The notes beneath the pieces are model-generated. The model had not been told where the DNA came from, did not search any database, and was given only the letters and a program-made list of their open reading frames with translations. Both the position numbers and the translations under genes were made by a program. Of a stretch of DNA of 26,462 nt, positions 4,363 through 25,888 are shown in pieces (within the stretch, counting starts at the first letter, position 1; the number at the start of each line of letters is the position of its first letter). The stretch comes from Candidatus Heimdallarchaeota archaeon (lineage in GTDB: Archaea; Asgardarchaeota; Heimdallarchaeia; JABLTI01): positions 1 to 26,462 of the forward strand of contig JABCTZ010000042.1 in the NCBI GenBank assembly GCA_018238155.1, in the 5' to 3' direction.

Positions 4363-4414
4363 CTTTCTTCTTTAAGGTCGAGAAGTCCAGTATAGTAATG
4401 ACACGCCAAGGTGG
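4363..4414 (+). repeat. Island repeat, partial copy (right half)
   Basis: ctttcttctttaaggtcgagaagtccagtatagtaatgacacgccaaggtgg matches the right half of the full copies. Confidence 0.85.
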
Positions 4415-4463
4415 AAAGATTAAGTTTTCTGTTAAATACCAGCAAAAATTCGAAAATGAATTA

Positions 4464-4661
4464 TTACTTCTTCAAGTTAACTTTAAAACAAATAAATAGA
4501 GTAGATCCTTTTTTCACTCAAATAACCCAGTCTCACCTGAGGTTATAGGGGTTAGTAAAAGAAAATAAAAAATAACTGATAATTATTTTGTAGAATCTAC
4601 GGCCCTCGCTTCTTCTTGAAGGTCTAGAAGTCCAGGTCGGTAATGACATGCTTTGGTGGCA
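4464..4661 (+). repeat. Island repeat, full copy A (~200 bp)
   Basis: ttacttcttcaagttaa...tcaaataacccagtctcacctgaggttataggg...aaaataactgataattattttgtagaatctac-ggccctcgcttcttcttgaaggtctagaagtcc...taatgacatgctttggtgg. Confidence 0.95.
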
Positions 4662-4840
4662 AGTAAATGCTGGTTGAGTATCTTGCTAAAAGATTCTGTA
4701 TGTAAATACCAAACATGAAAAAATCAGCTAAATTACTTGAAAACGAATAATTCTTACTAATTTGCTTAATTCATCATCGAAAAATATAAAACCACAAACG
4801 AATTAATTGTTTTAAAAAACTGGATAAGTGGGATAAAATT

Positions 4841-5239
4841 ATGGCTAAGATTTTCATCAGTTATAGGGATGATGATATTGAATGGAGAAATAATCTATAT
4901 AGTTTATTAAGAAATCCTGAAACTGAATTTCAAGATGTTCCAATACAAGAAAGGGAGGATTACAGAGGTACATCTGAGAGAACCATAAAAGATTATTTAC
5001 GACCATTGATAAGCGATGCTAGTTGTTTGATTTTACTGGTAGGAAATAATACTCACAATGGATGGTTTTTAAATTGGGAAATTGATGTAGCAATCTCAAG
5101 ACAAATTCCAATTGGTGCAATTAGAATACCTGATACAATAGGTGGACTCCCTCCAAAAATAAAGGGAATGGAAATTCCATTAGTTAATTGGGATAATACA
5201 GAGATAAAAAATATGATTGATCAATTTTTTGGCAGATAA
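4841..5239 (+). CDS. TIR-domain protein (ThsB / MTH538-like)
   Basis: KIFISY start, ASCLILLVGNNTH, WFLNWEIDVA with the catalytic Glu, PIGAIRI, VNWD. Confidence 0.9.
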   Translation: MAKIFISYRDDDIEWRNNLYSLLRNPETEFQDVPIQEREDYRGTSERTIKDYLRPLISDASCLILLVGNNTHNGWFLNWEIDVAISRQIPIGAIRIPDTIGGLPPKIKGMEIPLVNWDNTEIKNMIDQFFGR

Positions 5240-5275
5240 TAAAGGAAATTTCACTAGTGGTAAAGTGGATTAAAA

Positions 5276-5599
5276 ATGATAGATAGACCAAAATGTATAG
5301 TTAAAGAAGAAAATAATCGAAAATCTTGTACTAGTCGAGCTAAAATGGAAATAAAAGTAACACTGTATCATCCTGGTTCCGAAAGAAAATCACAACAACA
5401 TTGGTTTCTGTGTGAAAAGCATATGAGATTATTTTTGGATGCAAAGGGGGAAGGTTGGTATGTAAGGTACAATAATAAAGAAAATATATCACCAGTAATT
5501 GATTATAGCATTATATTTGATATTGAACAAATAGCAAATATACCAAATATGATTAGAGATAAAACACATAAAGAAGAAAAAATCTTCTTAAATATATAA
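5276..5599 (+). CDS. Small hypothetical protein, possibly Zn-binding (C...C...CxxH)
   Basis: 107-aa ORF tightly inside the operon; PKC-x10-C and FLCEKH motifs. Confidence 0.65.
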   Translation: MIDRPKCIVKEENNRKSCTSRAKMEIKVTLYHPGSERKSQQHWFLCEKHMRLFLDAKGEGWYVRYNNKENISPVIDYSIIFDIEQIANIPNMIRDKTHKEEKIFLNI

Positions 5600-5612
5600 A
5601 AAGAGTGATTTT

Positions 5613-6203
5613 ATGGAAGATATACTAGTATTAATGTCAGGCGGAATTGATTCGTTTTTGATGTCTTCGATTCTAAATGAAGACTATTCCATACAACCAT
5701 TTTATGTTAATTATAATCACTTAGCATATTTAGAAGAAAAAAATGCTGTGATTAAACAAATTGATTATCTGAAATTAATGCCTTTAATTGAAGTTTCTGT
5801 CAATAATATCTCAAAATTAATGGTGAATTCTTTAGTTGTTGAAAACGAATTGAAAAACGACTTTTATCCAGCTCGTAACTTATTATTATTAACTTTAGCT
5901 AGTCAAATTGCTTACAGTAGAAATATTACCAGAATAGCAATTGGAATCATAGGTGGAAGTAGAATTTTTCCGGATTGTACTGATCATTTCATTTCTGAAT
6001 TGGAGAATATATTATCAATTTCTAATGATAAAGAAATCATAGTATTCAAACCCCTATCAAATTTATCAAAAAAAGAGGTAATCAAATTGTTTTTTAAAAC
6101 GAATCTACCATTTAATCTTGTTTATTCATGTCAAAAAGGAAATAAGGAGCATTGTAATTCATGCCCTTCTTGTAAAGAACTATTCAATGAAATAAATAGA
6201 TAA
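5613..6203 (+). CDS. queC: QueC-family (7-cyano-7-deazaguanine synthase-like, Cap9/QatC-like) PP-loop ATPase
   Basis: LVLMSGGIDS PP-loop, YPARNLLLL, FPDC, and the Zn site YSC-x7-CNSCPSC. Confidence 0.92.
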   Translation: MEDILVLMSGGIDSFLMSSILNEDYSIQPFYVNYNHLAYLEEKNAVIKQIDYLKLMPLIEVSVNNISKLMVNSLVVENELKNDFYPARNLLLLTLASQIAYSRNITRIAIGIIGGSRIFPDCTDHFISELENILSISNDKEIIVFKPLSNLSKKEVIKLFFKTNLPFNLVYSCQKGNKEHCNSCPSCKELFNEINR

Positions 6204-6216
6204 GGAGAGAAAGAAA

Positions 6217-7131
6217 ATGGAAATAACCCATGAAGCTCAATTTGGAAATAGTAGGATTTTTAAAATAAAAATCAAGGAAAAAGAGATATTTACTCCGATT
6301 TTTTTCCCTGCAGTATCAAGTGTAGATATTAGAAAGTTTGAATCTATACTTAACTGGTTAATTGAAAAAAAGCCAATTAATTTCTTAGTATCTGGCTATG
6401 ATATCAATACAGAAATAGTAAGAAAATTCCCGATTAAGGAAACTTTTTTGATGCTAGATAGTGGGGGATATGAGATAAGAAATTTAGAAAAAAAATCATC
6501 TTGGTCGTTAAATAATTACAAGGAGATTATTGAAAAACTTGAACCAGATATAATAATCTCTTTAGATCTTCCTGATAATCAAAATCCAATTCAAGATTAT
6601 TTGTCTTTAAAGAGTAATTTAAATGAAGATGTTTTTCTTGAATTTGTTATTAGTGAAACCAATCCAAAAAAAATTCCTAATATGTTAATTTCATCATTGC
6701 AAGAAATACAACCTAATGCAATAGCGATTCCAGAGAGGAATTTGGGATTATCATTTATTGAAAGATTAAAAACTGTTAGAAAAGTTTCTAATATTTTACA
6801 AAATATGGAAAATCCGATTTTATTTCATATATTAGGCTGTAGCGATCCTGATTCAATTATTAAATATGCCAATGAAGGAGTTGATTTATTCGATGGTTTA
6901 GGATGGTATAAACGCGCAGTTTTTTATAAAGAAATTAAAAATAATAAATATAAATTGTATTCAGATTGGTCATTTATAGATTCATCAAAATTATCTGATT
7001 GTAATTGTTTTGTATGTAAAAAGGCTGACGAAATCAATCATTTAGAGAGAGTATTATCACATAATTTGCTTGCATATTCAAAATTGTGTGAGGAATTACA
7101 AATGTATATTATTGAAGGAGGAAAATTGTAA
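6217..7131 (+). CDS. tRNA-guanine transglycosylase (TGT)-like protein 1 (Cap10-like)
   Basis: TPIFFP, LMLDSGGYE, IISLD, FHILG, GVDLFDG, Zn motif CNCFVC...HNL. Confidence 0.88.
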   Translation: MEITHEAQFGNSRIFKIKIKEKEIFTPIFFPAVSSVDIRKFESILNWLIEKKPINFLVSGYDINTEIVRKFPIKETFLMLDSGGYEIRNLEKKSSWSLNNYKEIIEKLEPDIIISLDLPDNQNPIQDYLSLKSNLNEDVFLEFVISETNPKKIPNMLISSLQEIQPNAIAIPERNLGLSFIERLKTVRKVSNILQNMENPILFHILGCSDPDSIIKYANEGVDLFDGLGWYKRAVFYKEIKNNKYKLYSDWSFIDSSKLSDCNCFVCKKADEINHLERVLSHNLLAYSKLCEELQMYIIEGGKL

Positions 7132-7665
7132 ATGGGTGGTGGTGGTGGTGGTCGAGAAACTTCATATAGTAAATCAACTACAGGAATAAATTCACAGAAT
7201 TTAAGAAGAGAAGTAAAAGACAGCATAAGAAAAACCGAAAAAAGATTAAAATCAAAAGAATCAAAGATTACCTATCCTTCCAGAAATGTATTCATAAGCT
7301 TTCATATGGCTGATGAAATGCAAGTAAAATTGTTAAGACATCAAGCTAAAGATAATAGATTTAATTTTAAATTCAGAGATTATTCAGCTAAAGAAGCATT
7401 TAAGGACCCTTGGAAAAAATATTGCCGAGAAAAAATCAAACAATCCTCGTTTACAATTGTTATGATTGGAGAAGATACTCATAAGAGACCTGCTGTAAAA
7501 TGGGAAATTGCTGAAAGTTACAGACAAGGAAAGGAAGTCATTGGAATACGCATGTATAGAGATGAAAATTATAAAATACCACAGCAAATGAACGAGAAAA
7601 ATGCTAAAATCGTAAATTGGAATTTGGGTGATATTATGGAAATTCTTAGTGAAGCTTCTTATTAA
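7132..7665 (+). CDS. TIR-domain protein (ThsB / MTH538-like) with N-terminal MGGGGGG extension
   Basis: RNVFISF, FRDYS, SSFTIVMIGEDTH, AVKWEIAES (catalytic Glu). The ATG directly follows the TGT1 stop, with GGAGG at 7117-7121. Confidence 0.9.
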   Translation: MGGGGGGRETSYSKSTTGINSQNLRREVKDSIRKTEKRLKSKESKITYPSRNVFISFHMADEMQVKLLRHQAKDNRFNFKFRDYSAKEAFKDPWKKYCREKIKQSSFTIVMIGEDTHKRPAVKWEIAESYRQGKEVIGIRMYRDENYKIPQQMNEKNAKIVNWNLGDIMEILSEASY

Positions 7666-7699
7666 TGAGATTATTGAGATCTGAAGGAAGAGATGGCTT

Positions 7700-8638
7700 A
7701 TGAAAATAGATTTAATCAAGAAATTGAACATGGCAAAATCTTACAGAATTAAAATTAATAATTTTGAATTCAAAACGCCATTTTTTTTTCCTTCAATCTC
7801 AACATATAAAAATAATTTCGATACAATATTTAAATGGGTTTTAAGTAATCGATGTAACCAATTTTTATTTTCAGCTTATGATCTTAATAACAAGAGAACT
7901 GAATTATTGGCTAAAAAAAATATGAATATCTGTTTAGATAGCGGTGGATTTGAATTAAAAATACTAGAAAACCCAAAAAAATGGGATATTTATGATTTAA
8001 TAAACGTTTGTAATTCGGGAAAATTTGATATGATTATCTCTTTAGATCCATTTTTCGATAAAGAAGTTTTGCATAAATTCTTTCATACAAAAAATGATAT
8101 CTTAATACTATATTATGAAAAAATGGTTGAATCAATAAATTATGAAAGTCTTTTTGAATTTGCAATAACTGAGCATAAACCTGAAATGATAATTAAACAA
8201 TTGAAATATACCTTGAAAAAAATTAATCCAAACGCAATCGCTATCCCTGAGGAAAATTTGGGATTCACTTTTTCTGAAAAAATAAGCAATATAGAAACAA
8301 TTTCGAATCTACTGTCCAATCAATCAAATCCAATTTTATTTCATCTAAGAGGGTGCAGTAACCCTTTATCGATGATTGAATATTCATTGAGTGGTGTTGA
8401 CATATTTGATGGATTGGGATGGTCATCAAAAGTCATTAAAAAAACAGAAAACATATCAAATGAAGGAAAAATTTTACACAATTGGAAAACTTTCGATTAT
8501 AGTAAATTAGATAATTGTGAATGTGATGCATGTAAATCAAACAAAAGAAAAAAATATAATGATAAAGTATTAGCTCATAATTTATTTGCATATAAGAAAC
8601 TATTATCTGAAATCCAATTATTAATTAATGATCACTAA
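7700..8638 (+). CDS. TGT-like protein 2, paralogue of 6217..7131
   Basis: TPFFFP, CLDSGGFE, IISLD, PNAIAIPE, GVDIFDGLGW, CECDAC...HNL. Confidence 0.88.
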   Translation: MKIDLIKKLNMAKSYRIKINNFEFKTPFFFPSISTYKNNFDTIFKWVLSNRCNQFLFSAYDLNNKRTELLAKKNMNICLDSGGFELKILENPKKWDIYDLINVCNSGKFDMIISLDPFFDKEVLHKFFHTKNDILILYYEKMVESINYESLFEFAITEHKPEMIIKQLKYTLKKINPNAIAIPEENLGFTFSEKISNIETISNLLSNQSNPILFHLRGCSNPLSMIEYSLSGVDIFDGLGWSSKVIKKTENISNEGKILHNWKTFDYSKLDNCECDACKSNKRKKYNDKVLAHNLFAYKKLLSEIQLLINDH

Positions 8639-9573
8639 CTTAAATCGCTGTGATTGATATAGTAATTTCTTATATTTGTATATAAAGAATCAAATGCATT
8701 AGCAATAATTAAATGAGATTTAGCGGTTCTATAATCGATATTTTTTTTGTATTTCTCTAATAATATTTTTAATAAATCTAATTCAAATTTAGCAATTTGA
8801 TTTTTTCTGTATGAAATAATTTCTGGAAAGCAAAACCAAGTACAAGAATCATAATACGATAATAAGTAACTATGATAAACCATATTATCAGTAATTTTTT
8901 TGATTTCAAGAATTCGGATTTTCTTTTTTTCACCAACATCTCTTTCAGAAATGCCCATAACCAAATTTAAGATATTATCATATGCCTTAATAAAATTAAA
9001 TGGTGCACATCCCAATAATAAATCTCCTTCATATATTTCTGGAGAAATAATAAACTTATTTTTTATTAAAATCTCTATTTCAATAATAAGTTCTTTCCTT
9101 TTACTCTCCTCTCTATGAAAAACCTCATCAAGAACGTTATTTGAATTCTTTAGAAAATCATCTTTACAATTACTTAAACCCATTTTTGTATAAATAGTTA
9201 CTATATCATTAACGTATTTAATCAGAATATTTCTTGATACAGAATGAAATTTCGGTGAGTGGTATAATCTATTCCGAATTTCATGATATTCCAGCAATTT
9301 ATCAAACATATTCTTTATTTTTTTAAATTGTTTCTGTTTCTTACACATTTTGATTATATTTTCAAAGGATCTATTCTTTACAGGAATTCCAATAATAGTT
9401 TCCAAATAACTACGTAGTGTTCTTTCAACAACATTATCCAGTAATACAAAACTTTGCCGCAATGATGTATCATCGTTATTTTCTGCTAAAATAATGATAT
9501 TTCCTATAGATTTGTATAAATCCTCTATCCATAACCTATCTTGGTTTTTTTTAATTACCATTGCAATCCCCAA
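8635..9573 (-). CDS. HEPN-domain protein (putative RNase effector) with an unknown C-terminal domain
   Basis: SFVLLDNVVERTL helix and the HEPN R-x4-H motif EIRNRLYH. The start may be the ATG at 9561. Confidence 0.7.
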   Translation of the reverse strand: MGIAMVIKKNQDRLWIEDLYKSIGNIIILAENNDDTSLRQSFVLLDNVVERTLRSYLETIIGIPVKNRSFENIIKMCKKQKQFKKIKNMFDKLLEYHEIRNRLYHSPKFHSVSRNILIKYVNDIVTIYTKMGLSNCKDDFLKNSNNVLDEVFHREESKRKELIIEIEILIKNKFIISPEIYEGDLLLGCAPFNFIKAYDNILNLVMGISERDVGEKKKIRILEIKKITDNMVYHSYLLSYYDSCTWFCFPEIISYRKNQIAKFELDLLKILLEKYKKNIDYRTAKSHLIIANAFDSLYTNIRNYYINHSDLS

Positions 9574-9583
9574 TTTATTTTAT

Positions 9584-10171
9584 TTATATTTGCCAATTGC
9601 TAATAAGTGAATCAAAATTATAACCAACCCAAATTAGTACCAATATTGTGAAAACACCATATACAATAATCAAAGTTACGGGTATCCAAATTTCACCAAA
9701 AGTGATTTCTATATATTTCTTATCAATAATTTTTCTATTTCTTTTCCTGAATTTCTTCAATTTTATAATTCTTTTCTTGGGTTTCTTCGGTTTTTTATTC
9801 TTTTTCATTAATGCCCATTCTATTGTATATCCTTTTGCTGGTAATCTTTTTTCAATTTCATTAATAACTTGAAATTTGCTATCATTTAGTTTTTTATATT
9901 TTTTAATAAGTCGCTGCCAGCTTAAATCAAAAATGATACCAATAATAAGAACAATAAAAGTCCAGTGAATTAAATTTGATTCAACTAATAATCCAATAGC
10001 AACTAGAAATAAACTATTTGCAGTAAGAAAGAAGTTATTCATTGTGGCTCTTCTTGAACTAATTCTATCAGCCATCTCAATAAACAATTTATACTGTTTA
10101 AAAAGAGTATCTTTATCGTTCATTTCATCTTTATTAAAAAGATTGTTTATTGGTGAATCTTTGTTAGACAA
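9584..10171 (-). CDS. RipA/Rip1-like multi-pass membrane protein (putative pore-forming effector)
   Basis: QYKLFIEMADRISSRRATMNNFFLTAN, two TM helices, W..LIKKYKKLN.SKF.VI.EIEKRLP...EW, and a third TM at the C-terminus. Confidence 0.75.
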   Translation of the reverse strand: MSNKDSPINNLFNKDEMNDKDTLFKQYKLFIEMADRISSRRATMNNFFLTANSLFLVAIGLLVESNLIHWTFIVLIIGIIFDLSWQRLIKKYKKLNDSKFQVINEIEKRLPAKGYTIEWALMKKNKKPKKPKKRIIKLKKFRKRNRKIIDKKYIEITFGEIWIPVTLIIVYGVFTILVLIWVGYNFDSLISNWQI

Positions 10172-10591
10172 TAGAAACCTACCTCATCTTCAATTAAATG
10201 TATTACTTTGTTTAAATTTATATTTTTTGTTTTTACTGATTGACCTAAAATTAGAAAATTAGATTATCCTTTTAAAGTTAATGTTTTTGTAGTTTTCCAT
10301 TCAGCAATATCAGTATATTCAAGTTCTTTACATTCTAAAGTAATAAAGTCTTCATCTATTCTACGTTTGAATCTATTAATCAAGAACAATTACAAATTTT
10401 GTTGAACGAACACCTAGGTATAGATTGGTCAAATAATATCGATTATTTTGTAACATCAAGTATAAGAAGAAATAGCTCAAACTTGATTGAAATATAGTAA
10501 CTATAAAAAGGTAAATCAAAATAAAAGAGAAAAATAATTGTCAAGGCTTCATCGTGGTACTTTTGGTGGGATTAAACAGGTTACAATTAAA

Positions 10592-10806
10592 TACTTCTTC
10601 AAGTTAAATATAAAATAAGATTGACCCTTTTTCGTTCAAATAACCCTAGTCTCACCTGAGGTTATAGGGATAAATAAAAGAAAATAAAAAATAACTGATA
10701 ATTATTTTGTAGAATCTACGACCCTCGCATCTTCTGTAAGGTCTAAAGTCCATTTCGGAAATGACACGCTTTGGCAGCAGTTTTCTCCAAATTATTATTT
10801 CTTTAC
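10592..10806 (+). repeat. Island repeat, full copy B
   Basis: tacttcttcaagttaa...ttcaaataaccctagtctcacctgaggttataggg...gtagaatctacgaccctcgcatcttc...gtccatttcggaaatgacacgctttgg...ttatttctttac. Confidence 0.95.
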
Positions 10807-11276
10807 CACCATTTAAACCCATGTAAATCATCATGTTCTTTTTTAGACATAACTTCCAAGTTATCAGGTTCGTTGTTAAGTTTGTCACCATCGATATGAT
10901 GAACAACTTCACCACGACGAAGTTTTCTACCAACAACATAGTTTTCAGCAACCCAACGATGAACATATTCTCCTGAATCGCTAAACCGCATATATCCTCT
11001 ACTATCTTCATAGGTCTCAGATTCATCAACATCTCTTGGGGAGTAAGAGTCACAATTACAAATTCTACCAAACTTGAAAAGGATAATACCTAAGACTACA
11101 ATAACTCCAATTGCTATAAACCATCCATTGTGAAATAAAATACCAATAATAAATAAAATTACTCCTAAAAGAAAGAATGTACCTGTACAACCTAAAACTG
11201 AAATACAAGAACTTTTTTCCTCAATCTCCTCATCTTCTTCTTCATCATCTCCAAAACAACAATTGAATAGTCCCAT
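10803..11276 (-). CDS. Membrane-anchored HNH endonuclease
   Basis: Two TM helices followed by YVHRWVAE...EVVHHIDGDKLNNEPDNLEVM...EH (HNH motif). The stop codon lies in the end of repeat B. Confidence 0.85.
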   Translation of the reverse strand: MGLFNCCFGDDEEEDEEIEEKSSCISVLGCTGTFFLLGVILFIIGILFHNGWFIAIGVIVVLGIILFKFGRICNCDSYSPRDVDESETYEDSRGYMRFSDSGEYVHRWVAENYVVGRKLRRGEVVHHIDGDKLNNEPDNLEVMSKKEHDDLHGFKWW

Positions 11277-11348
11277 TAAATCCCTTCACTATAACCATTA
11301 AAAGTAAACACTAATCTTTATTAGTTTTACGATTCTCAAATTAGACTT

Positions 11349-11374
11349 GTATACTAATCATAATTTTAGTATAC
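11349..11374. promoter_or_regulatory. Inverted repeat GTATACTAA-N8-TTAGTATAC; candidate operator or recombination site
   Basis: Perfect 9-bp arms in the divergent region between the HNH and REase genes. Confidence 0.4.
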
Positions 11375-11523
11375 TGAAAAAAAATAAAATGGAAAATTCA
11401 GAGCCATTACACCCACATCCTCTCTGAAAGTAATGATTCTTGGAATCAATAAACAGAAATATTATAAAACTAGAAAATTGATTAGAATTAGAGCAAAAAA
11501 CAATTCATATAATTGGTGATTCA

Positions 11524-12606: not shown

Positions 12607-12684
12607 TAAAGGAATGATTCCCATATTACTTAGTGGCACTTATAAATTGAAATTTGAACATAAATAATAGATTGGAGCAATAAA

Positions 12685-13998: not shown

Positions 13999-14024
13999 AA
14001 TATAAAGTAAATTGATAATTCAAC

Positions 14025-14426
14025 TCATTTTAAATAGTGCTCAATATCAAGTACGATTTGATCTAAATTATCTTTTATTTCATGACCCCAAAATCTCAAT
14101 ACAATCCATCCTTTTTCTTTTAGAATAAGATTCACTTTAGTGGCTCTAGTTTTATTGGATTCGAATTTATTTAGCCAAAAATCCTTATTTGAATCTGGAA
14201 TCTTTTTGCAAATCGGACATCCATGCCAATAACAACCATCACAAAAAATAGCTATTTTTTGCTTGACAAAAACTATATCAGGCTTACCTTCAATTTTGTA
14301 TTGAACTCTAAAGCGATGACCTCGTATCCATAGAGCTGATCTTAAGGTCTTTTCTATACCGGTATCACGAGTTTTTATTTTACTCATTAATTTACTTCTT
14401 TGTTCAGGAGTGAATATATCTACCAT
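14025..14426 (-). CDS. vsr: Very short patch repair endonuclease
   Basis: MVDIFTPEQRSKLMSKIK, PDIVF, IFCDGCYWHGC, WIVLRFWGHE. The likely start is the ATG at 14426 rather than 14456. Confidence 0.93.
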   Translation of the reverse strand: MVDIFTPEQRSKLMSKIKTRDTGIEKTLRSALWIRGHRFRVQYKIEGKPDIVFVKQKIAIFCDGCYWHGCPICKKIPDSNKDFWLNKFESNKTRATKVNLILKEKGWIVLRFWGHEIKDNLDQIVLDIEHYLK

Positions 14427-15710: not shown

Positions 15711-15717
15711 ACAATAA

Positions 15718-15922
15718 TTAATTCTTCAGGTTAACAAAAAACAAGTAGATCCTTTTTTCATTCAAATAACCCTAGTCTCACCTGAGATTGTAGGAGGTAT
15801 TAAAAGAAAAAATAACTGATTATGTAGAATCTACAGCCCTCGCTTCTTCTTGAAGGTCTAGAAGACCATTTCGGTAATGACACACTTAGGTGGTAGTTTT
15901 CTCAGAGTAATTATTTCTTTAC
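15718..15922 (+). repeat. Island repeat, full copy C
   Basis: ttcttcaggttaac...gtagatccttttttcattcaaataaccctagtctcacctgagattgtagg...gtagaatctacagccctcgcttcttcttgaaggtctagaagaccatttcggtaatgacacacttaggtgg...ttatttctttac. Confidence 0.95.
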
Positions 15923-16046
15923 AATAGTAGTCTCATTTTTTTGTTGATAAAAAGTTGTAAATTTCCAATGAGACCCTAGAGTTTAGCTAAAAGCCGTATA
16001 TCAATAGTAATCTTAATTAGATGTGTTTTAATTTAATTAGATAAGG

Positions 16047-17471: not shown

Positions 17472-17487
17472 ATATAAATAATAATTT

Positions 17488-19242: not shown

Positions 19243-19246
19243 AATA

Positions 19247-20230
19247 TTAGACCAATTGTTCCTTAATAATTTTTTGAGCAGGACAATTTAAGTGGCATTC
19301 GTACTCCTGATTTGATTTATGAATAGAATTCATGAATTTGAAAACTTTTGAATCACTAATAATTATACTTAATAGATTTGTTTCAATGTTATTATCACCA
19401 TTTAATTTAATATTTTTCAAAGCTACACATGGATAGACATAACCATAAGGTGTTATACAAATCTTGTCAGTTCCAGCGCGACATTTAATTCTATCATTTT
19501 GTTTTAATATTGGAAGTGAAGAACTAAGAGAGATTCCTATTTTTTCACCATACTCACTGATAAAATCTTGAATTAGTGTTTTTACTTCAGTATCATCTAA
19601 TTCAAATTTGACTCTATTATTAAAAGCACGACCATGGGGTATAAATCTCAATAGATGTAAATTAAAAATATTAAATTTTCTAAGAAATGGTACTACCTTA
19701 AATAATTCATTTGCATTATTTTTCATAATAACAAAATTAACTTCTCTTTTAAAAACATAATCATTTTTTGAATTTTCCATTGAAATTAGTAGATTCATAT
19801 AGCTGTTAGATACTTGAGTGATTTCTTCGTGAGAATCCTTTGAAATTCCATGTAAGCTGAAAACAAGCTTATCCAATCCACTTTTATCTAGTTTTTTAAA
19901 GAATTCTTTTGATAATGGTAAATTCTTTTGTTCACGTCTATTGTATAAATTACCACTAGTATAACATATTACATAAAATGAATATTGTTTTGCTAATTTG
20001 ATAATTTTGTCTATTTTAGGATGTAATAATGGATCTCCACCTGAAAGTGAAATTTCATTGAAACCTAATCTTGCTGATTCTTCTATTATTCTAGAAATTT
20101 TATTAAAGCTTAAGAATGTATTTTTTTTAATATTTGAATTGCTAGAACAATGCGCACAATTCAAACCACATTTATCTGTGACTTCTAAACAGATAGTTTT
20201 GTTAAGATTCTTCGTGTATCTAAAGGCCAT
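19247..20230 (-). CDS. Radical SAM protein with SPASM/twitch domain
   Basis: CGLNCAHC (CxxxCxxC), SLSGGDPLLH, FSLHG, CRAG...ITPYGYVYPC, C-terminal Cys cluster. Confidence 0.92.
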   Translation of the reverse strand: MAFRYTKNLNKTICLEVTDKCGLNCAHCSSNSNIKKNTFLSFNKISRIIEESARLGFNEISLSGGDPLLHPKIDKIIKLAKQYSFYVICYTSGNLYNRREQKNLPLSKEFFKKLDKSGLDKLVFSLHGISKDSHEEITQVSNSYMNLLISMENSKNDYVFKREVNFVIMKNNANELFKVVPFLRKFNIFNLHLLRFIPHGRAFNNRVKFELDDTEVKTLIQDFISEYGEKIGISLSSSLPILKQNDRIKCRAGTDKICITPYGYVYPCVALKNIKLNGDNNIETNLLSIIISDSKVFKFMNSIHKSNQEYECHLNCPAQKIIKEQLV

Positions 20231-20465
20231 TTGTTAATAATCCCTTCATATCGCTCCAATACTTATTGGACATTCTATCTAATATTCTTTTTCTATCAAG
20301 CAATCTAAATCCAAATATGCTAATAAATAAGCATTTGCTTTTACTTAAATATCTATAAATTAGAGTTTTATTGAATTGAACCAATCACTTCTCTATATAT
20401 AAAAAAATATGTAATGTTTGCTTATATAAAATTTAGTGACATGAATTGAATCAGATATTCAATTC

Positions 20466-21338
20466 TTACAATGAGTCATGTTTTAATCCACCAAATTCAA
20501 TATTTTTACTGATAAGATTTATAGCCCATTTCTTCGTATTTGATACACGTCTTGCTGGATTCATTTCAGCTGAACAAACGGCTTCTTGGCCAAAAGATTG
20601 TGGCCAATCAGCAAGACAAAACCCTTTTCTTAATTTCTGATAATTTTTGAATCTTGTAAAACCATTATATGAGCAAAGAGGTAATTTGAATGTAAGGAGA
20701 TTTCTTAACTCATAATTGCTTAATCTAAGATCTTTTGTTAGTTTTTTGAACATACCCGCACCTGGCAGATTTGTATCAATTATATTTTTTGAAGCAATGT
20801 ATAGGATATTATTCTTATCCTTTAGATAACTATCTTTCAAATGAGGATGATAGGAATATTCCTTATTTTTAGTCGTAGGTTTAATAATCTCACCAACATG
20901 AATCCAACCATAGATATAGTAACCTTCAGTTAATATATTATCATATTTCTCCCAAGGTGAAAACCTAGAGAAAAAAAGAAAAATAGCACCAATAGAATTT
21001 TGTCCTACACCACAATTTCTGAGATATCCTTGAGCTGAACCCTTCTGTCCAAAAATAGGTCGCCAATTTTCTGTGGGAAATATTTGAATTAAATCAGGAT
21101 CTAAATGTGCACCATATTTTGGAATTCTTTTTCTCGTTTCCAAAATTTCAAATATATTATCAAAATTCATGAAATTAATTTTTAAACGATTATAGTCTAT
21201 TCCCTTATAATTTCTTGATATTTGATTTTTTGATTCAGGTTTAGGTATGAATACATATTCACCAGTTTTACCATTTAATGGTGAATACATACCTCCGCTA
21301 CTACTATCTATCCCTTTTCTACTTAAAATAACAGTCAA
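20466..21338 (-). CDS. Nucleotide-modification-associated domain 3 (Nmad3)-like protein
   Basis: VILSRKGIDSSSGG..SP, HLDPDL, FGQKGSAQGYL, FLFF, HPH. Confidence 0.78.
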   Translation of the reverse strand: MTVILSRKGIDSSSGGMYSPLNGKTGEYVFIPKPESKNQISRNYKGIDYNRLKINFMNFDNIFEILETRKRIPKYGAHLDPDLIQIFPTENWRPIFGQKGSAQGYLRNCGVGQNSIGAIFLFFSRFSPWEKYDNILTEGYYIYGWIHVGEIIKPTTKNKEYSYHPHLKDSYLKDKNNILYIASKNIIDTNLPGAGMFKKLTKDLRLSNYELRNLLTFKLPLCSYNGFTRFKNYQKLRKGFCLADWPQSFGQEAVCSAEMNPARRVSNTKKWAINLISKNIEFGGLKHDSL

Positions 21339-21460
21339 TTTACTTCACTCAACATAAATTATCATAAAATTTGGATTCGTTTGTCTTTATTGTAGATTAT
21401 TCAATGATTATTTATTAATCTAATATATTATACCTTTTGTAAATAAATACTAACTCACAC

Positions 21461-21507
21461 CTCTTCATGGTCTAGAAGTCCATTTCGGTAATGACACGCT
21501 TAGGTGG
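21461..21507 (+). repeat. Island repeat, partial copy (right half)
   Basis: ggtctagaagtccatttcggtaatgacacgcttaggtgg is near-identical to copy C. Confidence 0.9.
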
Positions 21508-21519
21508 AAAAAATATGAA

Positions 21520-22029
21520 TTATCTTGATTTTAATATGAATTCAATGAGTCTTTTCAATTCATTTGAGAAATAGATATCAGGTTTGGGACGGTGCTGCCT
21601 GAAGATATAGTATTCGTTCTTGAGTAGTTCATGCAAAATGTTATTGTAAGTTTCTATCTCATCAAAAGAAACAAACATATGAAGATACTGAGGTATTTCT
21701 CGTTTCTTTTCATTCCATTGTTTTAGAACTAACTCTGGTTTACTATAGATACCACTTTTCTTCACTTCAATTGCAAATTTATTCCCAAGTAAAATATCAA
21801 TTCTTTTTCTTGTTCCTTTAGGAGAAACTTCGAATGAAACAGACAATTTCGTTTTTTCTTTAAGGAAATTCCCAAAAACTTTAGCATAAATATCTCCTTT
21901 AGTTGATCTTAATGCATCAGATTCTTGAAAAACTAAATTGTTATTAGCATATACTTTTTCTACAGTGAGATAAAGTTCTTTATACACCTTTTCGATTTGT
22001 TTGTAAAGATTTCTTAATTCATTTTCCAA
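21520..22029 (-). CDS. PD-(D/E)xK nuclease-fold protein
   Basis: SFE...RIDILLGNKFAIEVKKSG. Confidence 0.7.
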   Translation of the reverse strand: MENELRNLYKQIEKVYKELYLTVEKVYANNNLVFQESDALRSTKGDIYAKVFGNFLKEKTKLSVSFEVSPKGTRKRIDILLGNKFAIEVKKSGIYSKPELVLKQWNEKKREIPQYLHMFVSFDEIETYNNILHELLKNEYYIFRQHRPKPDIYFSNELKRLIEFILKSR

Positions 22030-22030
22030 T

Positions 22031-23107
22031 TTATTCCAACCTCTTGATTGAATTAGTATAAACTCTTAATGAAAAACGCCAGACAAGGGAGAAGAGTTTA
22101 ACAGCCTGCTCTGAATCTAGATTAATCAGTTGACCAATCTTTTTTGAATCCAAGTTGTGTTTCTTAGCAAATTCACGAGTTATGTATCCACCATTATGGA
22201 TAATTAAGTTCCGAATTGCCCACATACTAACAAAGAACCTTCTATGTTCCGGAGTAGTATTATTTAGCAAACTAATTTGTTTTGATGACACAAATTTATA
22301 CAGTGCAGATAAACAGGTTCGTTTTAGGTTTGGTATCAAAATTCTAACTTGAGAATTACTTTGAGTTGATTTAGAAACAATATATTTCTTGTAGCTATTG
22401 CCTTGCTTTTTGGTTATTACTCGAAACATCTTTGTAGTTTGAATAAGAAGCTTAATGCTTCGTGTGAGAAAGGATTCAAATTGGGCTAAACAAGTAACTA
22501 ATACTTGAGCTAATACCTGGTGATTGTAGTTGATTGTATCTGAATAGTAATCAAGAATATTATCTTTAGAGAAATTGATTGTCAATACATTTGGAACACC
22601 ATATTTTGCATTAAAATCTTTAACTGTTAGGTTTCTATCTGGAACATTATTATTTTCTAGGAATTCTGATCTAAATGCATCCCGGATAATCAGTTCTGAA
22701 AAAATCTCATCTTTATCCTTCGATTTATTCATTAATAGTAAAGTATCAAGAGAATATTGATTTGTAAGTAGTAATAAGATGCTAAACCTCGTTAAAGAAT
22801 CATAATCTTTGGTAAAATGAGAATAATCATCCACAGTTAGGAATCCTTGTTGTCTGAATTTCTTCCGTTCTTTTAGAAATTTGAAATCTTCATTAAGGCT
22901 TTCTTTCAATTCTTTAGGAAGATTCTTTGGAAAATCACCTAAAGCTTTCACTGAAATTCTTGCCATGATTGATGTTCTTGCTAAAGAATTGAGATAATTG
23001 GAAGAGTATTCTTTGTAACTTTCTAAAGAATTATTTTGAATCATTTTAATATCTCCATAAAAAGCAAATCCTATTTGTTTTCCACTTTCTAGTCTTCTTC
23101 TTATCAT
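22031..23107 (-). CDS. C-terminal HEPN-domain protein
   Basis: LAQFESFL helix and the R-x4-H motif AIRNLIIHNGG. Confidence 0.7.
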   Translation of the reverse strand: MIRRRLESGKQIGFAFYGDIKMIQNNSLESYKEYSSNYLNSLARTSIMARISVKALGDFPKNLPKELKESLNEDFKFLKERKKFRQQGFLTVDDYSHFTKDYDSLTRFSILLLLTNQYSLDTLLLMNKSKDKDEIFSELIIRDAFRSEFLENNNVPDRNLTVKDFNAKYGVPNVLTINFSKDNILDYYSDTINYNHQVLAQVLVTCLAQFESFLTRSIKLLIQTTKMFRVITKKQGNSYKKYIVSKSTQSNSQVRILIPNLKRTCLSALYKFVSSKQISLLNNTTPEHRRFFVSMWAIRNLIIHNGGYITREFAKKHNLDSKKIGQLINLDSEQAVKLFSLVWRFSLRVYTNSIKRLE

Positions 23108-23297
23108 AAAAAATTATTGATGAGTAATTACAAGAAAATTCCTAGCAAGTTAAAGATCAAAAATCTTATAGCAATGAAAAATCATCATTTTTAATATCTT
23201 TATGATAGATAAAGATCCAATACTTGCTCATTGTTTTTGTTGGTATTTCTATTTTATCTTTAGTTGAGTTCAATCTTTCACCTCAACAAAAAGAAAA

Positions 23298-23837
23298 TCA
23301 AATGCGATAGTCTCCTAATTTCAACCTGCCAAATATTGCAGGCATATGTTTAAACTCACTATCCACATAAGTAAGAATTTTATCGTATTCTTGATTCAGA
23401 AACCAATTAGGTACATCTCTTCCGCTACCCTTAGTTGCGGGGAAACCATACGCCTTGAGAATATTATTCCATTTTTGATTATAGAAATTATTTCGAGATG
23501 TGAAAATTTGTAATAAGTCAATGTGCCAACAATCTCGATAAAAAGTCTTGTATAATTCACTGTAATAAAGGATTTTATGAAAGATACACCTGCAAATTAT
23601 AAAAGGAATATCGAAACTCAATGTATTATAACCAATTATTTGTGGTTTTAAGTTACCACTTGATGGAAAAGCACAAATACGTTTAATTAGTTCCTCCAAT
23701 ATTGCCTTTTCGTTGGATTGCCATGAAAGAAACTTTTCATGTTTACCATTTATTCCATTTTGTAAGCTGATCAGTACAATCTTATCTTTACTTTTTAATC
23801 CAGTAGTTTCTATATCCAGAAAAAAATCCCGCTCCAA
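23298..23837 (-). CDS. DEDD / PolB-type 3'-5' exonuclease (RNase H-like fold)
   Basis: FLDIETTG (ExoI), IGYNTLSFDIPFI (ExoII), HIDL, YVDSE (ExoIII-like). Confidence 0.85.
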   Translation of the reverse strand: MERDFFLDIETTGLKSKDKIVLISLQNGINGKHEKFLSWQSNEKAILEELIKRICAFPSSGNLKPQIIGYNTLSFDIPFIICRCIFHKILYYSELYKTFYRDCWHIDLLQIFTSRNNFYNQKWNNILKAYGFPATKGSGRDVPNWFLNQEYDKILTYVDSEFKHMPAIFGRLKLGDYRI

Positions 23838-23914
23838 AAAATCACCTATTTAACTTACTTGTGTTAAATTATAAGTTTTTATTAAATTAGAGCTAATAAT
23901 TCAAAACTCAATTT

Positions 23915-24057
23915 AATTCTTCAATTCAATAATCCTAGTTACAACTAATCGTAAAAAGGACAAAAGAAAAATAGAATTTCTAATTGATTGCAGTCAATAT
24001 ATGACACTTAGCCCTCGCTTCTTCTTGAAGGTCTAGAAGTTCATTTCAGTAAAGAAA
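23915..24057 (+). repeat. Island repeat, degenerate copy (left part decayed, right part conserved)
   Basis: tcaataatcctagtt...aaaagaaaaa...agccctcgcttcttcttgaaggtctagaagttcatttcagtaa. Confidence 0.88.
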
Positions 24058-24079
24058 GCAAGTTCAAGTACTTGCTTTC
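24054..24079 (-). terminator. Perfect 10-bp hairpin GAAAGCAAGT-N6-ACTTGCTTTC just downstream of the GNAT gene
   Basis: Inverted repeat read directly, 8 nt after the GNAT stop; followed by TTT on the minus strand. Confidence 0.45.
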
Positions 24080-24087
24080 ACGCAGTA

Positions 24088-24687
24088 CTATTTTTGCTGA
24101 CGAATCTTATCGTTAAAGATTATACTCATAATAATTACATCTTCTAAAGAGCCATCATCCATCAGAAATTTTTTCTGTAAAATAGCTTCTTGTTTAAAAC
24201 CAAATTTAGGATAGATCTTTCGAGCATCATTAGAAACACAGACTTCAAGCTCTAAGCGAAAAATGCCAGGTTTTGCTTGAGCAATATCAACTGATAGTTT
24301 AGTGAGAAAGGAACCTATGCCTAATTTCTGAAATTTAGGAAGAACAGATAATCCCATTTGAGCTCTATGCTTGTATCTTCCACTTTGAGAAAAAATAAGA
24401 GCCATATTACCAGCAAATGCCACTTCATTTTGAGAATCATCAAGAAGCATTACATTTATTGGTAAAGAATTTTTATATTCTAACTCTACTCCTTGGGGAT
24501 ACCAGTGATCAATAGCTTTTTTTGTTATAGGATTAAGGAATTTAAAAAAATCTCGCGGAGCATCTTGATATCCTTGCCAAACCAAATCTCTATCAGAACT
24601 TTTCGCAGGACGGATGTGAAACCAATAATTACAAAATTGCTTTTTGATAGCATAATCACCGGGATTAAAAGCCATAATAAATCTCAC
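24088..24687 (-). CDS. GNAT-family N-acetyltransferase
   Basis: GLSVLPKFQKLGIGSFL (AcCoA-binding motif A), LELEV..SN.ARKIY.KFGF. Confidence 0.9.
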   Translation of the reverse strand: MRFIMAFNPGDYAIKKQFCNYWFHIRPAKSSDRDLVWQGYQDAPRDFFKFLNPITKKAIDHWYPQGVELEYKNSLPINVMLLDDSQNEVAFAGNMALIFSQSGRYKHRAQMGLSVLPKFQKLGIGSFLTKLSVDIAQAKPGIFRLELEVCVSNDARKIYPKFGFKQEAILQKKFLMDDGSLEDVIIMSIIFNDKIRQQK

Positions 24688-24764
24688 AGGAAAACTACTT
24701 TGTGAATCATTTAATAGTTTATATTCATCTTCTGTAAATTGTTTAATTATTCATCCATTAAAAA

Positions 24765-24830
24765 ATTCAATTCTTATCTCAATAATCCTAGTTTCACCTT
24801 GAGGCTGTAGGGATAAAAGAAAAAAAATAC
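24765..24830 (+). repeat. Island repeat, partial copy (central hairpin)
   Basis: ctcaataatcctagtttcaccttgaggctgtagggataaaagaaaaaaaata. Confidence 0.85.
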
Positions 24831-24838
24831 TCACTTCT

Positions 24839-25774
24839 TTATTTTAAAGGAAACTTTGAATGATATGCAGAAGTACTATTGAAATGTCTCTCTTTTAGAA
24901 ATATAAAACTAGGATTATCAATAATTTTAGAACCGAAACCATGAGATGAATAATGGGAAAGAGCATTAAGAAAGCAAAAAGAAACCGCCAATTCATTCTG
25001 AGTAAAAGGGTGATTAGCTTCTACTTTATGAAGAATAGAATAAGTGAACTCTTGAACAATAGGCAAGTAACTAAGAGAAGATAAAGTACGAATTCCGTCA
25101 TAAAAAGCAATCTCATAAGGAGTCAGAGACTGGGCAAGCAAACATTCTTGTAGATAAAATAGATACTCCAAACTAAAATTAATCATTGGTAAATAGGAGT
25201 CATCATAGTGCTTCCAAGAACTTTGTGAAGTGTATTCATTTATGATTGATTTAGGAACTTGAGAATAAGATTGATACTGTTTAAGAGCAGGAATATCAGA
25301 CCCAAAGAATGTGTTAGCTAAAATATTAGCTAAAAGGGAGAATGCTTCCTCAGCTGAAACAGTAAAAGAGGAGAAAGGAATAACACATTTACGGAAACGA
25401 TAAGTAATATCAGTGAATTGAATTTCAGTGGGCAGATCATCTCTAAAGGCAAGATCCAGATATACAGTATGAAAATCAAAAAGAGCATGATAATCAGGTT
25501 CTTCCGCAATTTCACCAATTAGGCAAGGATATTGAGCAGTATTAGGATGGGGAGTCGTCAATTTCAAATAAGAATAGAAACGTTTTGGAATACCTTTCCG
25601 AGCATTGGCATTTTGATAAAGCTTTATTAATAATTCAAATGCACGAAAGGGATAAGAATATTCCCAAGAACCAATACCATCAATTATCAGTTCGTTGTTT
25701 ATGAAATAACATTGAGTCTCATTGTCCCAAATAAGAAATAAAGGCAAATTATCTTCTTGTATTTTCTGTAACAA
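24839..25774 (-). CDS. Hypothetical 311-aa protein, paralogue of 3412..4344
   Basis: Conserved blocks listed under 3412..4344. Confidence 0.85.
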   Translation of the reverse strand: MLQKIQEDNLPLFLIWDNETQCYFINNELIIDGIGSWEYSYPFRAFELLIKLYQNANARKGIPKRFYSYLKLTTPHPNTAQYPCLIGEIAEEPDYHALFDFHTVYLDLAFRDDLPTEIQFTDITYRFRKCVIPFSSFTVSAEEAFSLLANILANTFFGSDIPALKQYQSYSQVPKSIINEYTSQSSWKHYDDSYLPMINFSLEYLFYLQECLLAQSLTPYEIAFYDGIRTLSSLSYLPIVQEFTYSILHKVEANHPFTQNELAVSFCFLNALSHYSSHGFGSKIIDNPSFIFLKERHFNSTSAYHSKFPLK

Positions 25775-25856
25775 ATCCTTTTCTCCTATTCCTTATTTCA
25801 ATTAGGATGTAGTAATAGTGTAAAAAAAGGTTGTGAAAAAAATCGAGCAAAAATGG

Positions 25857-25888
25857 TTACTTCTTCAAGTGAACAAATAAAATAGATC
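25857..25888 (+). repeat. Island repeat, left-end remnant
   Basis: ttacttcttcaagtgaacaaataaaatagatc matches the start of copies A-C. Confidence 0.65.

Follow-up and report, generated by a model that had tools for sequence, protein, structure and literature searches.

The 26,462-nt window analyzed here (positions 1–26,462 of the forward strand of contig JABCTZ010000042.1, assembly GCA_018238155.1) comes from a Candidatus Heimdallarchaeota archaeon (Asgardarchaeota; Heimdallarchaeia; JABLTI01; genome G000) and raises the question of what the repeat is that separates its blocks of genes, and whether it is the means by which they are exchanged. An initial annotation had described eight co-oriented intergenic copies of a ~200-bp repeat, and an nhmmer profile made from ten full copies matches at all of the positions given (4363, 4464, 10592, 15718, 21461, 23915, 24765 and 25857). 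All eight matches are on the + strand, with a best opposite-strand match of only E 0.22, and all are intergenic according to the ORF list. The proposed length fits the three full units (about 190–220 bp) and not the five partial copies; the proposed block sizes (about 5.9, 4.9, 5.5, 2.4, 0.7 and 1.0 kb) agree with the measured intervals of 5.9, 4.9, 5.6, 2.4, 0.7 and 1.0 kb. A sensitive scan of the three large blocks for degenerate internal copies found none.

The cargo, annotated with Pfam and PADLOC, consists of defence-type genes (Table 1). Cassette I contains a + strand operon encoding a ThsB-like TIR protein, a 107-aa protein, a QueC-like protein, a TGT/DpdA-like protein, a second ThsB-like TIR protein and a second TGT/DpdA-like protein, and on the − strand a 312-aa protein without assignment and an 8xMP membrane protein. 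Cassette II encodes an HNH endonuclease, an HpaII-type restriction enzyme (RE_HpaII, E 9e-126), a C5 cytosine methyltransferase (DNA_methylase, 4e-98), a Vsr mismatch endonuclease (Vsr, 4e-27) and an unassigned 390-aa protein. Cassette III encodes a 474-aa protein with an EndoIII-type Fe-S motif, an unassigned 584-aa protein, a viperin-like radical-SAM/SPASM protein and Nmad3. Block IV probably represents two fused cassettes; its exonuclease part (23182–23880) is found alone at two other loci (G004:C98 and L140). The gene at 3412–4344, whose stop lies 20 nt before the copy at 4365–4419, thereby adjoins the outermost copy on its contig, and the ORF running off the right end is 97% identical to the end of another G000 contig (C32). 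As previously noted, the window contains no IntI or transposase gene, nor any other integrase, that Pfam or PADLOC detects. No DNA-level copy of the three large defence cassettes was found elsewhere, so that the mobility of these three themselves is judged from position only.

Table 1. Repeat-derived junctions and cargo of the window. Junction strands refer to the rRNA sense, which is the − strand of the window.
Feature	Coordinates	Strand	Basis
310-aa protein of an abundant unannotated array family, adjoining copy 4365..4419	3412..4344	+	
Partial junction copy, stem arm + 23S-tail mimic	4365..4419	−	nhmmer E 3e-9; native 23S-end alignment
Full junction unit	4451..4670	−	nhmmer E 2e-65
Cassette I, 5.9 kb	4671..10585	both	Pfam; PADLOC
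Full junction unit	10586..10787	−	nhmmer E 7e-61; alignment
Cassette II, 4.9 kb	10788..15706		Pfam
Full junction unit	15707..15901	−	nhmmer E 3e-56
Cassette III, 5.6 kb	15902..21459		Pfam; PADLOC pVip matches
Partial junction copy, stem arm + 23S-tail mimic	21460..21512	−	nhmmer E 8e-12; alignment
Block IV, 2.4 kb: 169-aa and 358-aa proteins, DEDDh/RNase H-like exonuclease	21513..23918		
Partial junction copy, degenerate A/M module + stem arm	23919..24057	−	nhmmer E 4e-14
Cassette V: one GNAT acetyltransferase gene	24058..24780		Pfam
Junction remnant, hairpin module + decayed stem arm	24781..24850	−	nhmmer 24781–24827, E 6e-8; C33 comparison
Cassette VI: 311-aa protein of the same abundant unannotated array family as the 310-aa protein	24828..25843		
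Junction remnant, 'A' motif + internally deleted M module	25844..25935	−	nhmmer 25844–25888, E 4e-4; C28, C32 comparison
Start of next cassette: HNH_4-like ORF, open at contig end	25936..26462	+	

The repeat is not a private recombination site: by alignment it reproduces, in reverse complement, the final ~26 nt of 23S rRNA together with the 31-nt 3′ arm of the processing stem. In G000 and the related genome G006 it often adds a trailer with oligo-T tracts, a small hairpin and an 18-nt 'A' motif. The native copy in G000 (C35:5180–5390) is directly behind the 23S gene; the segment C35:5360–5952 is the missing 23S 3′ part of this genome, with 97.8% identity to that of G006, and overlaps contig C1. 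In four congeners (G006:C95, G004:C98, G010:C20 and G002:C99) the core copy and the Rfam LSU_rRNA_archaea match are on opposite strands and overlap at the 3′ end of the latter, the four native 23S ends align with window copies, and Rfam has no family for the repeat itself. The trailer arm is predicted to pair with the 23S leader (duplexes of −62 and −68 kcal/mol), and the conserved 27 nt of the repeat pair with the rRNA leader and not with themselves, the consensus fold containing small local hairpins only. Because the repeat copies the 23S tail and stem arm, the array is anchored behind the rRNA gene.

Copies range in length from 45 to ~220 bp, carry from 0 to ~125 nt of 23S tail, and are 62–98% alike in the trailer part. 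Conservation is 0.85–1.0 in the arm, a value somewhat inflated because copies were picked by a 12-nt anchor inside it, and falls to 0.3–0.8 in the tail mimic. The full unit at 4451–4670 contains the 'A' motif, a T-rich/hairpin trailer module ('M'), the stem arm and, in diverged form, ~57 nt from the 3′ terminus of 23S; it is 87% identical to the native 23S end and trailer of G006. The partial window copies consist of the stem arm and tail, or the trailer module, or the 'A' motif alone; that at 21460–21512 has a trailer side similar to the native trailer of the G004 type, that at 23919–24057 has non-23S sequence in place of the tail side, and the remnant at 25844–25935 has neither arm nor tail.

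The window is one piece of an array that extends over at least 133 kb. G000 has 43 co-oriented copies on eight contigs spanning about 133 kb, or more than 3% of the genome, and just two isolated partial copies (C10 and C4). The gaps between copies are 31 bp to 12.3 kb (median 1.2 kb), many cassettes are only 0.3–1.2 kb with one or two small genes, and ORFs within the arrays are oriented 55 one way and 67 the other. Copies are present in nine of ten Ca. Heimdallarchaeota congeners, with at least 40 in G004, and arrays begin right at the 23S 3′ end in four of them; all genomes compared are fragmented MAGs, and contamination in G000 is 5.9%. Metagenomes yielded a further 61 stretches with 136 copies, of mixed orientation at only one locus, where the spacing fits a 23S gene between leader and trailer arms. 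Copies are co-oriented in every array examined, as the initial annotation's own check against a MITE-like repeat had asked, and with 43 of the 45 copies of G000 in co-oriented arrays a MITE/REP-type element, which would be dispersed in both orientations with terminal inverted repeats and target duplications, is rejected. The distinction drawn earlier from CRISPR, which combines identical repeats of about 25–40 bp, spacers of like length and cas genes, also holds: long, variable units of 45–220 bp, 62–98% alike in the trailer part, alternate with 0.03–12 kb of genes including whole operons, and the only Cas1 gene of G000 is on C15.

Comparison between genomes shows that the junctions separate units that recur. 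In the window orientation these have the form stem arm, tail mimic, cargo. The GNAT cassette is found in three contexts (the window, G000:C33 and G008:C402) with homology starting in the arm each time, and toxin-antitoxin cassettes are common to C33 and C28. G000 and G006 are 96% identical through the 23S gene and native unit, and unrelated beyond. Differences between genomes map to the repeats, as the check proposed earlier for strains had asked: 46% of 192 homology-block ends are inside a repeat, versus 2.8% for random positions, with about half of the ends away from any repeat. Block starts fall within ~30 model positions covering the arm in 57 of 69 cases, BLAST ends not being placeable within the segment common to all copies.

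These patterns are best accounted for, with a probability of about 0.55, by the copies being att-like recombination junctions in a cassette store that resembles an integron, is anchored at the 23S 3′ end and would be served by an enzyme in trans. The stem arm would be the crossover site, and circular cassettes would be inserted, excised and reshuffled behind the rRNA gene, with the 23S end and processing stem left intact each time. The array would then behave like a sedentary integron in which modules for defence and toxin-antitoxin functions accumulate. Scars of serial integration and ongoing shuffling may fit these data alike. Logan contigs of a related population contain no clean excision or circle junction, the joints seen being cross-matches between copies.

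Plain homologous recombination is a serious rival, to which we give a minority share of belief. The 55–220-bp tail copies would then be portable homology used by the general recombination machinery with no dedicated site-specific enzyme: recombination between two copies would release the cassette that they flank, which could reinsert at any copy, whether within one cell or following transfer of DNA. This process, too, should concentrate block ends in the arm, since the arm is the best-conserved 30 nt. The variation among copies in length and in the amount of 23S tail is compatible with it, as is the native trailer module of G000 resembling an in-array copy (95%) more than its G006 orthologue (87%), which gene conversion or exchange would give. 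However, it leaves unexplained the origin of the first tail copies and of tail-mimic flanks on new cargo, and many junctions have only ~50 nt in common at 80–90% identity. Copies retain the arm better than the tail mimic, which suggests sequence-specific use, and block starts fall within ~30 positions even though long units offer ~200 bp of homology.

The arrays and their surroundings have yielded no recombinase, as homologous recombination would predict; a search for a linked tyrosine or serine recombinase had been proposed at the outset. Of 25 PF00589 tyrosine recombinase matches in ten genomes, none is on a copy-bearing contig; the two in G000 are on C8 and C19, neither an array contig. Neither tblastn nor phmmer finds a tyrosine recombinase in about 720 kb of array-bearing DNA. 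No serine recombinase occurs in G000, where matches to Cas1, Y1 and TnpB are all off the array contigs. These negative results cover incomplete MAGs, from which a distant trans-acting gene could escape. Since no cassette encodes a recombinase, the enzyme of the att-like junctions must act in trans, and it would not be a recognizable tyrosine or serine recombinase linked to the array. That a dedicated activity of this kind uses the stem arm as its attachment site and moves defence operons and toxin-antitoxin pairs, making the system an archaeal counterpart of the integron, is a tentative proposal.

Loss of the enzyme gene is instead assumed if the blocks are decayed tandem elements, each once self-mobile by an integrase targeting the 23S 3′ end, which we regard as improbable. 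The co-oriented direct repeat of an RNA-gene 3′ end after each insert is the layout of serial integration at tRNA genes (10.1101/2020.12.28.424599), and integrase-gene loss after plasmid integration receives mention in a passage on Methanococcales (PMC8371274). Yet neither integrase genes nor pieces of them accompany the more than 240 junction copies that about 720 kb contain, many cassettes have just one or two small genes in 0.3–1.2 kb, and the same small cassettes turn up in new contexts. A 27-kb contiguous array in G004 has no drop in copy quality along it and no gradient with distance from the 23S gene.

Islands formed by serial integration at tRNA and tmRNA 3′ ends are known as Islander-type islands (PMC4383910) and as Prochlorococcus tycheposons (10.1101/2020.12.28.424599). 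They share with the Heimdallarchaeota arrays a target at the 3′ end of a structural RNA gene, a displaced co-oriented partial copy after each insert with the intact target at the root, and the stacking of inserts, which gives an island with many defence and niche genes. The arrays differ in having a 23S rRNA end and trailer as target, dozens of junctions per genome rather than a few, no integrase or fragment at element ends, units down to 0.3–1 kb, and no proximal-to-distal gradient of copy decay. The literature searched contains no report of a 23S rRNA end or trailer as an integration target, nor of the 23S gene end plus processing stem as the recombination target named here.

True attC-based integrons also occur in Asgard MAGs (Ghaly et al. 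2022, PMC9668308), and at first sight the array looks similar to sedentary chromosomal integrons and to CALINs, the attC clusters without an integrase, both of which include examples from these MAGs: all are long one-directional arrays with a repeat after each cassette, with cassettes that often encode toxin-antitoxin or defence functions, have varying neighbours and lack a recombinase of their own. The repeat is however 23S tail plus stem arm rather than an attC hairpin with R″/L″–L′/R′ boxes, no IntI is found in the arrays of ten genomes, genes are in both orientations, cassettes reach 6–12 kb with whole operons, and the anchor is an rRNA gene rather than attI/Pc. An attC site is an imperfect palindrome of 57–141 bp with RYYYAAC and GTTRRRY boxes, folding into a single hairpin, and IntI is a tyrosine recombinase with its own extra domain, encoded beside the array. 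The GTTAAC of the 'A' motif does not fit GTTRRRY, the fold contains no single attC hairpin, and neither the gaps nor the operon-sized window blocks resemble cassettes that are mostly single, promoterless same-orientation ORFs. A classical integron, like a MITE/REP-type repeat, is therefore scarcely credible, and of the integron-like cassette capture first proposed the cassette junctions stand, the likeness to integrons being one of analogy.

The arrays also resemble additive flexible genomic islands in being a fixed chromosomal spot that gains and loses small cassettes. In marine bacteria such islands are located at tRNA genes and are tied to integrases or have unmarked junctions, and in Methylophilaceae strains reportedly differ at a fixed spot by gain and loss of small cassettes. 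In the arrays, by contrast, every junction is marked by an rRNA-tail copy.

Oligo-T tracts are established terminators in archaea, and the copies could be bidirectional terminators, insulators or decoy stem arms that protect horizontally acquired genes against read-through from the strong rRNA promoter. The long unit has T6 and T4 tracts on the rRNA-sense strand and T6 on the other, and pairing of its hairpin is kept through G-U/G-C changes. Most copies in congeners and metagenomes consist of arm and tail without the T-rich module, however, and neither the arm-located block starts nor the changes of neighbours are explained. Expression control can be an added role and is very unlikely as the origin of the copies; within the att-like junctions, the oligo-T tracts that the long unit has on each strand probably have the further effect of shielding cassettes from rRNA read-through.

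If the att-like reading is true, the arrays would represent a gene-cassette store of a second design with an independent origin, in the archaeal lineage nearest to eukaryotes and filled with defence functions (TIR/QueC/TGT, HpaII-type restriction-modification, viperin-like radical SAM and toxin-antitoxin pairs), and would provide one definite path for the extensive gene flow described in Heimdallarchaeia. In the Heimdall group of Asgard archaea, this candidate counterpart of the integron sits behind the only rRNA gene. MAGs are fragmented at this rRNA operon because the tail copies break assemblies there, and in annotation the array part of such MAGs comes out in pieces.

The composite direct repeat first seen in a repeat scan of the window was represented by a search profile of ten full copies, which matches the window eight times (E 4e-4 to 2e-65), always on the + strand; the best match on the opposite strand has an E value of 0.22. 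Three of the copies are full units (~200 bp) and five are partial. All eight co-oriented copies described in the initial annotation are thus recovered, all are intergenic as it stated, and the intervals between them agree with its block sizes (about 5.9, 4.9, 5.5, 2.4, 0.7 and 1.0 kb). Two junction copies are separated by 31 bp (4419-4451) with no gene in between, a pair that could represent an empty unit or the scar of an excision. The window contains no tRNA (ARAGORN) and no Rfam family at the gathering threshold; one unit searched at E values up to 10 also has no Rfam family, and a short copy has no rRNA or tRNA match.

Repeat copies and selected cargo of the window
Feature	Coordinates	Strand	Basis
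Repeat copy	4365-4419	+	Profile match
Repeat copy	4451-4670	+	Profile match
Repeat copy	10586-10787	+	Profile match
Repeat copy	15707-15901	+	Profile match
Repeat copy	21460-21512	+	Profile match
Repeat copy	23919-24057	+	Profile match
Repeat copy	24781-24827	+	Profile match
Repeat copy	25844-25888	+	Profile match
Tightly packed operon: two ThsB-type TIR proteins, QueC-like protein, two TGT/DpdA-like proteins, 107-aa protein	4841-8638	+	Pfam/PADLOC
1088-aa protein with bacterial TSP3 repeats, left end of window	3-3266	-	TSP3 repeats

The repeat corresponds to the 3′ end of the 23S rRNA gene. In four congeneric genomes (G006:C95, G004:C98, G010:C20 and G002:C99) a core copy and the opposite-strand Rfam match to LSU_rRNA_archaea overlap at the 3′ end of the latter, and comparison of these four native ends with the window copies identifies the repeat as the reverse complement of the last ~20-57 nt of mature 23S rRNA together with the trailer that follows. 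The - strand of the window is therefore rRNA-sense, and the orientation of the repeat places the 23S gene past the right end of the window. The 23S gene of this genome, on contig C1, is cut off by the contig end; its missing 3′ part is C35:5360-5952, which overlaps C1 and is 97.8% identical to G006, and the native trailer is a full unit at C35:5180-5390. The first 31 nt of the trailer pair with the 23S leader (duplex -62 and -68 kcal/mol, helix 1 included) and therefore constitute the 3′ arm of the pre-rRNA processing stem.

In the window orientation, the unit begins with ~25 loosely conserved nt, followed by the ‘A’ motif TTACTTCTTCAAGTTAAC and a trailer module (M) containing a T6 tract, a small hairpin CCCTAGTCTCA/TGAGAC-TAGGG, and an A-rich run that corresponds to T6/T4 tracts on the rRNA-sense strand. 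The sequence GTAGAATCTAC is located between module M and the arm (about CGCTTCTTCTTGAAGGTCTAGAAGTCC), which is followed by the 23S-tail mimic ending at about ...GCTTAGGTGG(TAAGTA). Arm and tail (~58 nt) are the sole part of the unit common to the genus. The native trailers of G004, G010 and G002 differ, and the window copy at 21460 has a trailer side of the G004 type; there are at least three families of arm-adjoining flank, all with a TAAYTGAT-like word ~20 nt from the arm. Among copies picked by a 12-nt anchor inside the arm, per-position conservation is 0.85-1.0 in the arm and 0.3-0.8 in the tail mimic, and similarity falls to background ~26 nt into the 23S sequence. Consensus folding as RNA or DNA on either strand yields no one long hairpin, and the small central hairpin has weak support from one double change and several G-U/G-C changes. 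Part of the arm is complementary to the ‘A’ motif, and both are nearly invariant. Oligo-T tracts have an established role in archaeal transcription termination, and the long unit may for this reason also terminate transcription on both strands.

The array is rooted at the 23S end, and its copies are co-oriented and spread throughout the genus. The window represents one entire contig (C31) of the array. The metagenome-assembled genome (MAG; 4.08 Mb, 46 contigs, 90.7% completeness, 5.9% contamination) contains 45 profile matches, 43 of them on eight contigs (C28, C33, C31, C9, C2, C5, C35 and C32) with a single orientation per contig, and the repeat is thus not dispersed in both orientations in the manner that would have spoken against the cassette reading of the initial annotation. 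The copies extend over ~133 kb with gaps of 31 bp-12.3 kb (median 1.2 kb), and the ORFs are transcribed in both directions (55 in one and 67 in the other). Small cassettes resemble toxin-antitoxin pairs, and some of the largest blocks of the array, including large multi-gene defence cassettes, fall in the window. Contig-end overlaps lead from C28 or C9 to C35 or C5, and from C35 to the 23S gene. The two remaining matches are isolated partial copies outside the arrays on large contigs: C10:33822-33909 (arm and part of M), which is 3.3 kb from a TnpB-like frame with one TGA stop (C10:37228-37428), and C4:54957-55037 (M only).

The ~55-nt core is found in nine of ten congeners, which are Candidatus Heimdallarchaeota MAGs; the single second-genus genome among the 12 genomes covered from the order gave no match in the repeat search. 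G004 contains a 27-kb contiguous array of 15 copies that begins at the 23S end, with no fall in copy quality with distance from it. A scan of metagenome contigs gave 136 copies in 61 stretches (392 kb), 36 of which have more than one copy; mixed orientation occurs in just one stretch, where the 3.4-kb spacing would accommodate a 23S gene flanked by its leader and trailer arms. The genes first behind the 23S trailer encode a WD40 beta-propeller, a 463-aa unannotated protein and a HerA-like ATPase of 856 aa. This block exists in two versions, on C35 and C5 (loci L089 and L090), with 92% protein identity between the ATPases, and the start of the C5 version forms the ends of both C28 and C9; the two versions suggest either a duplicated cassette or two strains in the MAG, given its contamination.

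Cassettes are reused in different contexts, with breakpoints in the arm. Between this genome and G006, identity is 96% across the 23S gene and native unit, and the sequences are unrelated past the unit end. The GNAT cassette (24018-24765) is also present on C33 and in G008:C402 at 91-93% identity; its left neighbour differs in all three places and homology always begins in the arm, a pattern shared by several toxin-antitoxin cassettes common to C33 and C28. Across the 92 array sequences analysed (724 kb in total; split-alignment ends discarded), 46% of 192 homology-block ends lie inside the repeat in at least one partner and 33% in both, compared with 2.8% for random positions. Differences between genomes map to the repeat. 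Block starts are concentrated at model positions 130-160 (57/69), spanning GTAGAATCTAC to the first half of the arm. The moving unit is thus arm, tail mimic and cargo in the window orientation; read in the rRNA sense, it is cargo followed by tail mimic and arm, and the distal part of the arm forms its boundary.

The exonuclease region (23182-23880) is found again in the G004 23S array and at metagenome locus L140, in both cases lacking its two companion genes of the window, and in locus L106 the 358-aa gene has a homologue that is followed by a core. Between the 358-aa and exonuclease genes, the gap (23107-23215) contains a decayed A-like word at 23133-23152, and both L106 and L140 have a junction copy at the equivalent position. 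From the lone exonuclease, the L106 core and the decayed word, it seems that the 2.4-kb block arose when two cassettes lost the junction between them and fused. For the three large defence blocks of the window, neither the congeners nor the metagenome stretches contain a DNA-level copy; the blocks are bounded by full units and may be mobile.

A recombinase is not encoded in cis. None of the Pfam/PADLOC annotations of the window is an integrase or transposase, as the initial annotation had noted, and the linked tyrosine or serine recombinase that it proposed to look for did not emerge: none of the 25 PF00589 matches in ten genomes is on a copy-bearing contig, and a profile search finds no serine recombinase in this genome. 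The genome encodes two PF00589 proteins, a weak match of 524 aa on C19 and a 351-aa protein with SAM-like N-terminal domains on C8; the latter is probably a chromosomal Xer-type enzyme, since close 355-360-aa counterparts exist in five congeners. Searches with tblastn and phmmer using ORFs taken from around twelve of the PF00589 matches gave no hit in the 724 kb of array-bearing DNA, archaeal Phage_integr_3 has no match in this genome or its ten congeners, and profiles for Cas1, Y1 transposase and TnpB have all their matches in this genome off the array contigs. The cassettes could alternatively be decayed self-mobile elements, but integrase remnants are completely absent and the units very small, which weakens this explanation.

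Sequence-specific use of the arm has its main rival in plain homologous recombination among copies, which needs no enzyme of its own and agrees both with the variable copy length and with a native trailer that resembles an in-array copy (95%) more than its orthologue (87%). Speaking for sequence-specific use are the stronger conservation of the arm relative to the tail mimic, the confinement of block starts to a narrow window, and the lack of an age gradient in the array; the data accommodate either explanation. Under sequence-specific use, the arm would be the crossover site, cassettes would move as circles carrying one unit, and the enzyme would work in trans. A search of sequencing runs returned one run from a related population, matching 14% of query words at the contig level; its contigs have cross-matches between repeat copies and uneven cassette coverage. 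Two ~24-nt arm matches in a viral-contig scan were considered as attP sites and judged to be chance, the one examined being inside a coding region. The match at 5446-5473 of viral contig L096 (IMGVR_UViG_3300037067_002099, 29% GC) is near-perfect over 24 nt, at an ORF start, and attributed to chance.

The closest known mechanism is serial integration at tRNA genes, which for Islander reportedly leaves displaced partial tRNA copies. Tycheposons similarly integrate serially at tRNA genes with displaced partial tRNA copies (10.1101/2020.12.28.424599). Unlike the 23S-tail array, both types of element have their own integrases and use tRNA or tmRNA sites. Asgard MAGs are reported to contain true attC/IntI integrons (PMC9668308); by the defining tests of integrons, the 23S-tail array is not one. 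Mobile elements described for Heimdallarchaeum include tRNA-site elements and aloposons and no 23S-anchored array (PMC8813620), and in a limited literature search the terms ‘23S’ and ‘rRNA’ were absent from a paper on Atabeyarchaeia and a review of archaeal tyrosine recombinases.

The commonest cassette protein belongs to a ~310-aa family, sometimes doubled to ~650 aa, of which ~720 kb of array DNA encode at least 20 members. Two are in the window (3412-4344, +; 24839-25774, -), and others are on contigs C28, C33 and C2 and in loci L099, L106, L117, L135, L148, L152 and L155. The family has no matches in Pfam, PADLOC or Atlas and lacks an invariant acidic residue. An AlphaFold model (pLDDT 75, pTM 0.80) combines an N-terminal beta/alpha part with a C-terminal helical part. 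Foldseek returns no match to it at E ≤ 0.001, and VIA-align no convincing PDB match (Z ≤ 5.6, helical part only). With no family, fold or conserved acidic residue marking either, there is no basis for designating the protein a nuclease or recombinase.

Pfam and PADLOC also identify among the window cargo two ThsB-type TIR proteins, QueC and two TGT/DpdA-like proteins, whose operon suggests a 7-deazaguanine DNA-modification module joined to TIR effectors, as well as an HpaII-type restriction enzyme, a C5 methylase, Vsr and an HNH nuclease. A radical-SAM/SPASM viperin-like protein (with PADLOC viperin [pVip] matches) and an Nmad3 protein are clustered at 16047-21338 with a 584-aa protein and a 474-aa protein that ends in an EndoIII-type Fe-S motif, possibly forming a nucleotide-modifying defence system. 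A DEDDh-like exonuclease, the GNAT protein and several unannotated proteins complete the cargo. The 1088-aa TSP3-repeat protein has a relative in the C28 array (a 1033-aa ORF, 29% identity), and its repeat region has a DNA-level match within the G004 array (G004:C98:121571-122032); because of these relatives inside arrays, the left end of the window may still be cargo and not the chromosomal flank of the array.
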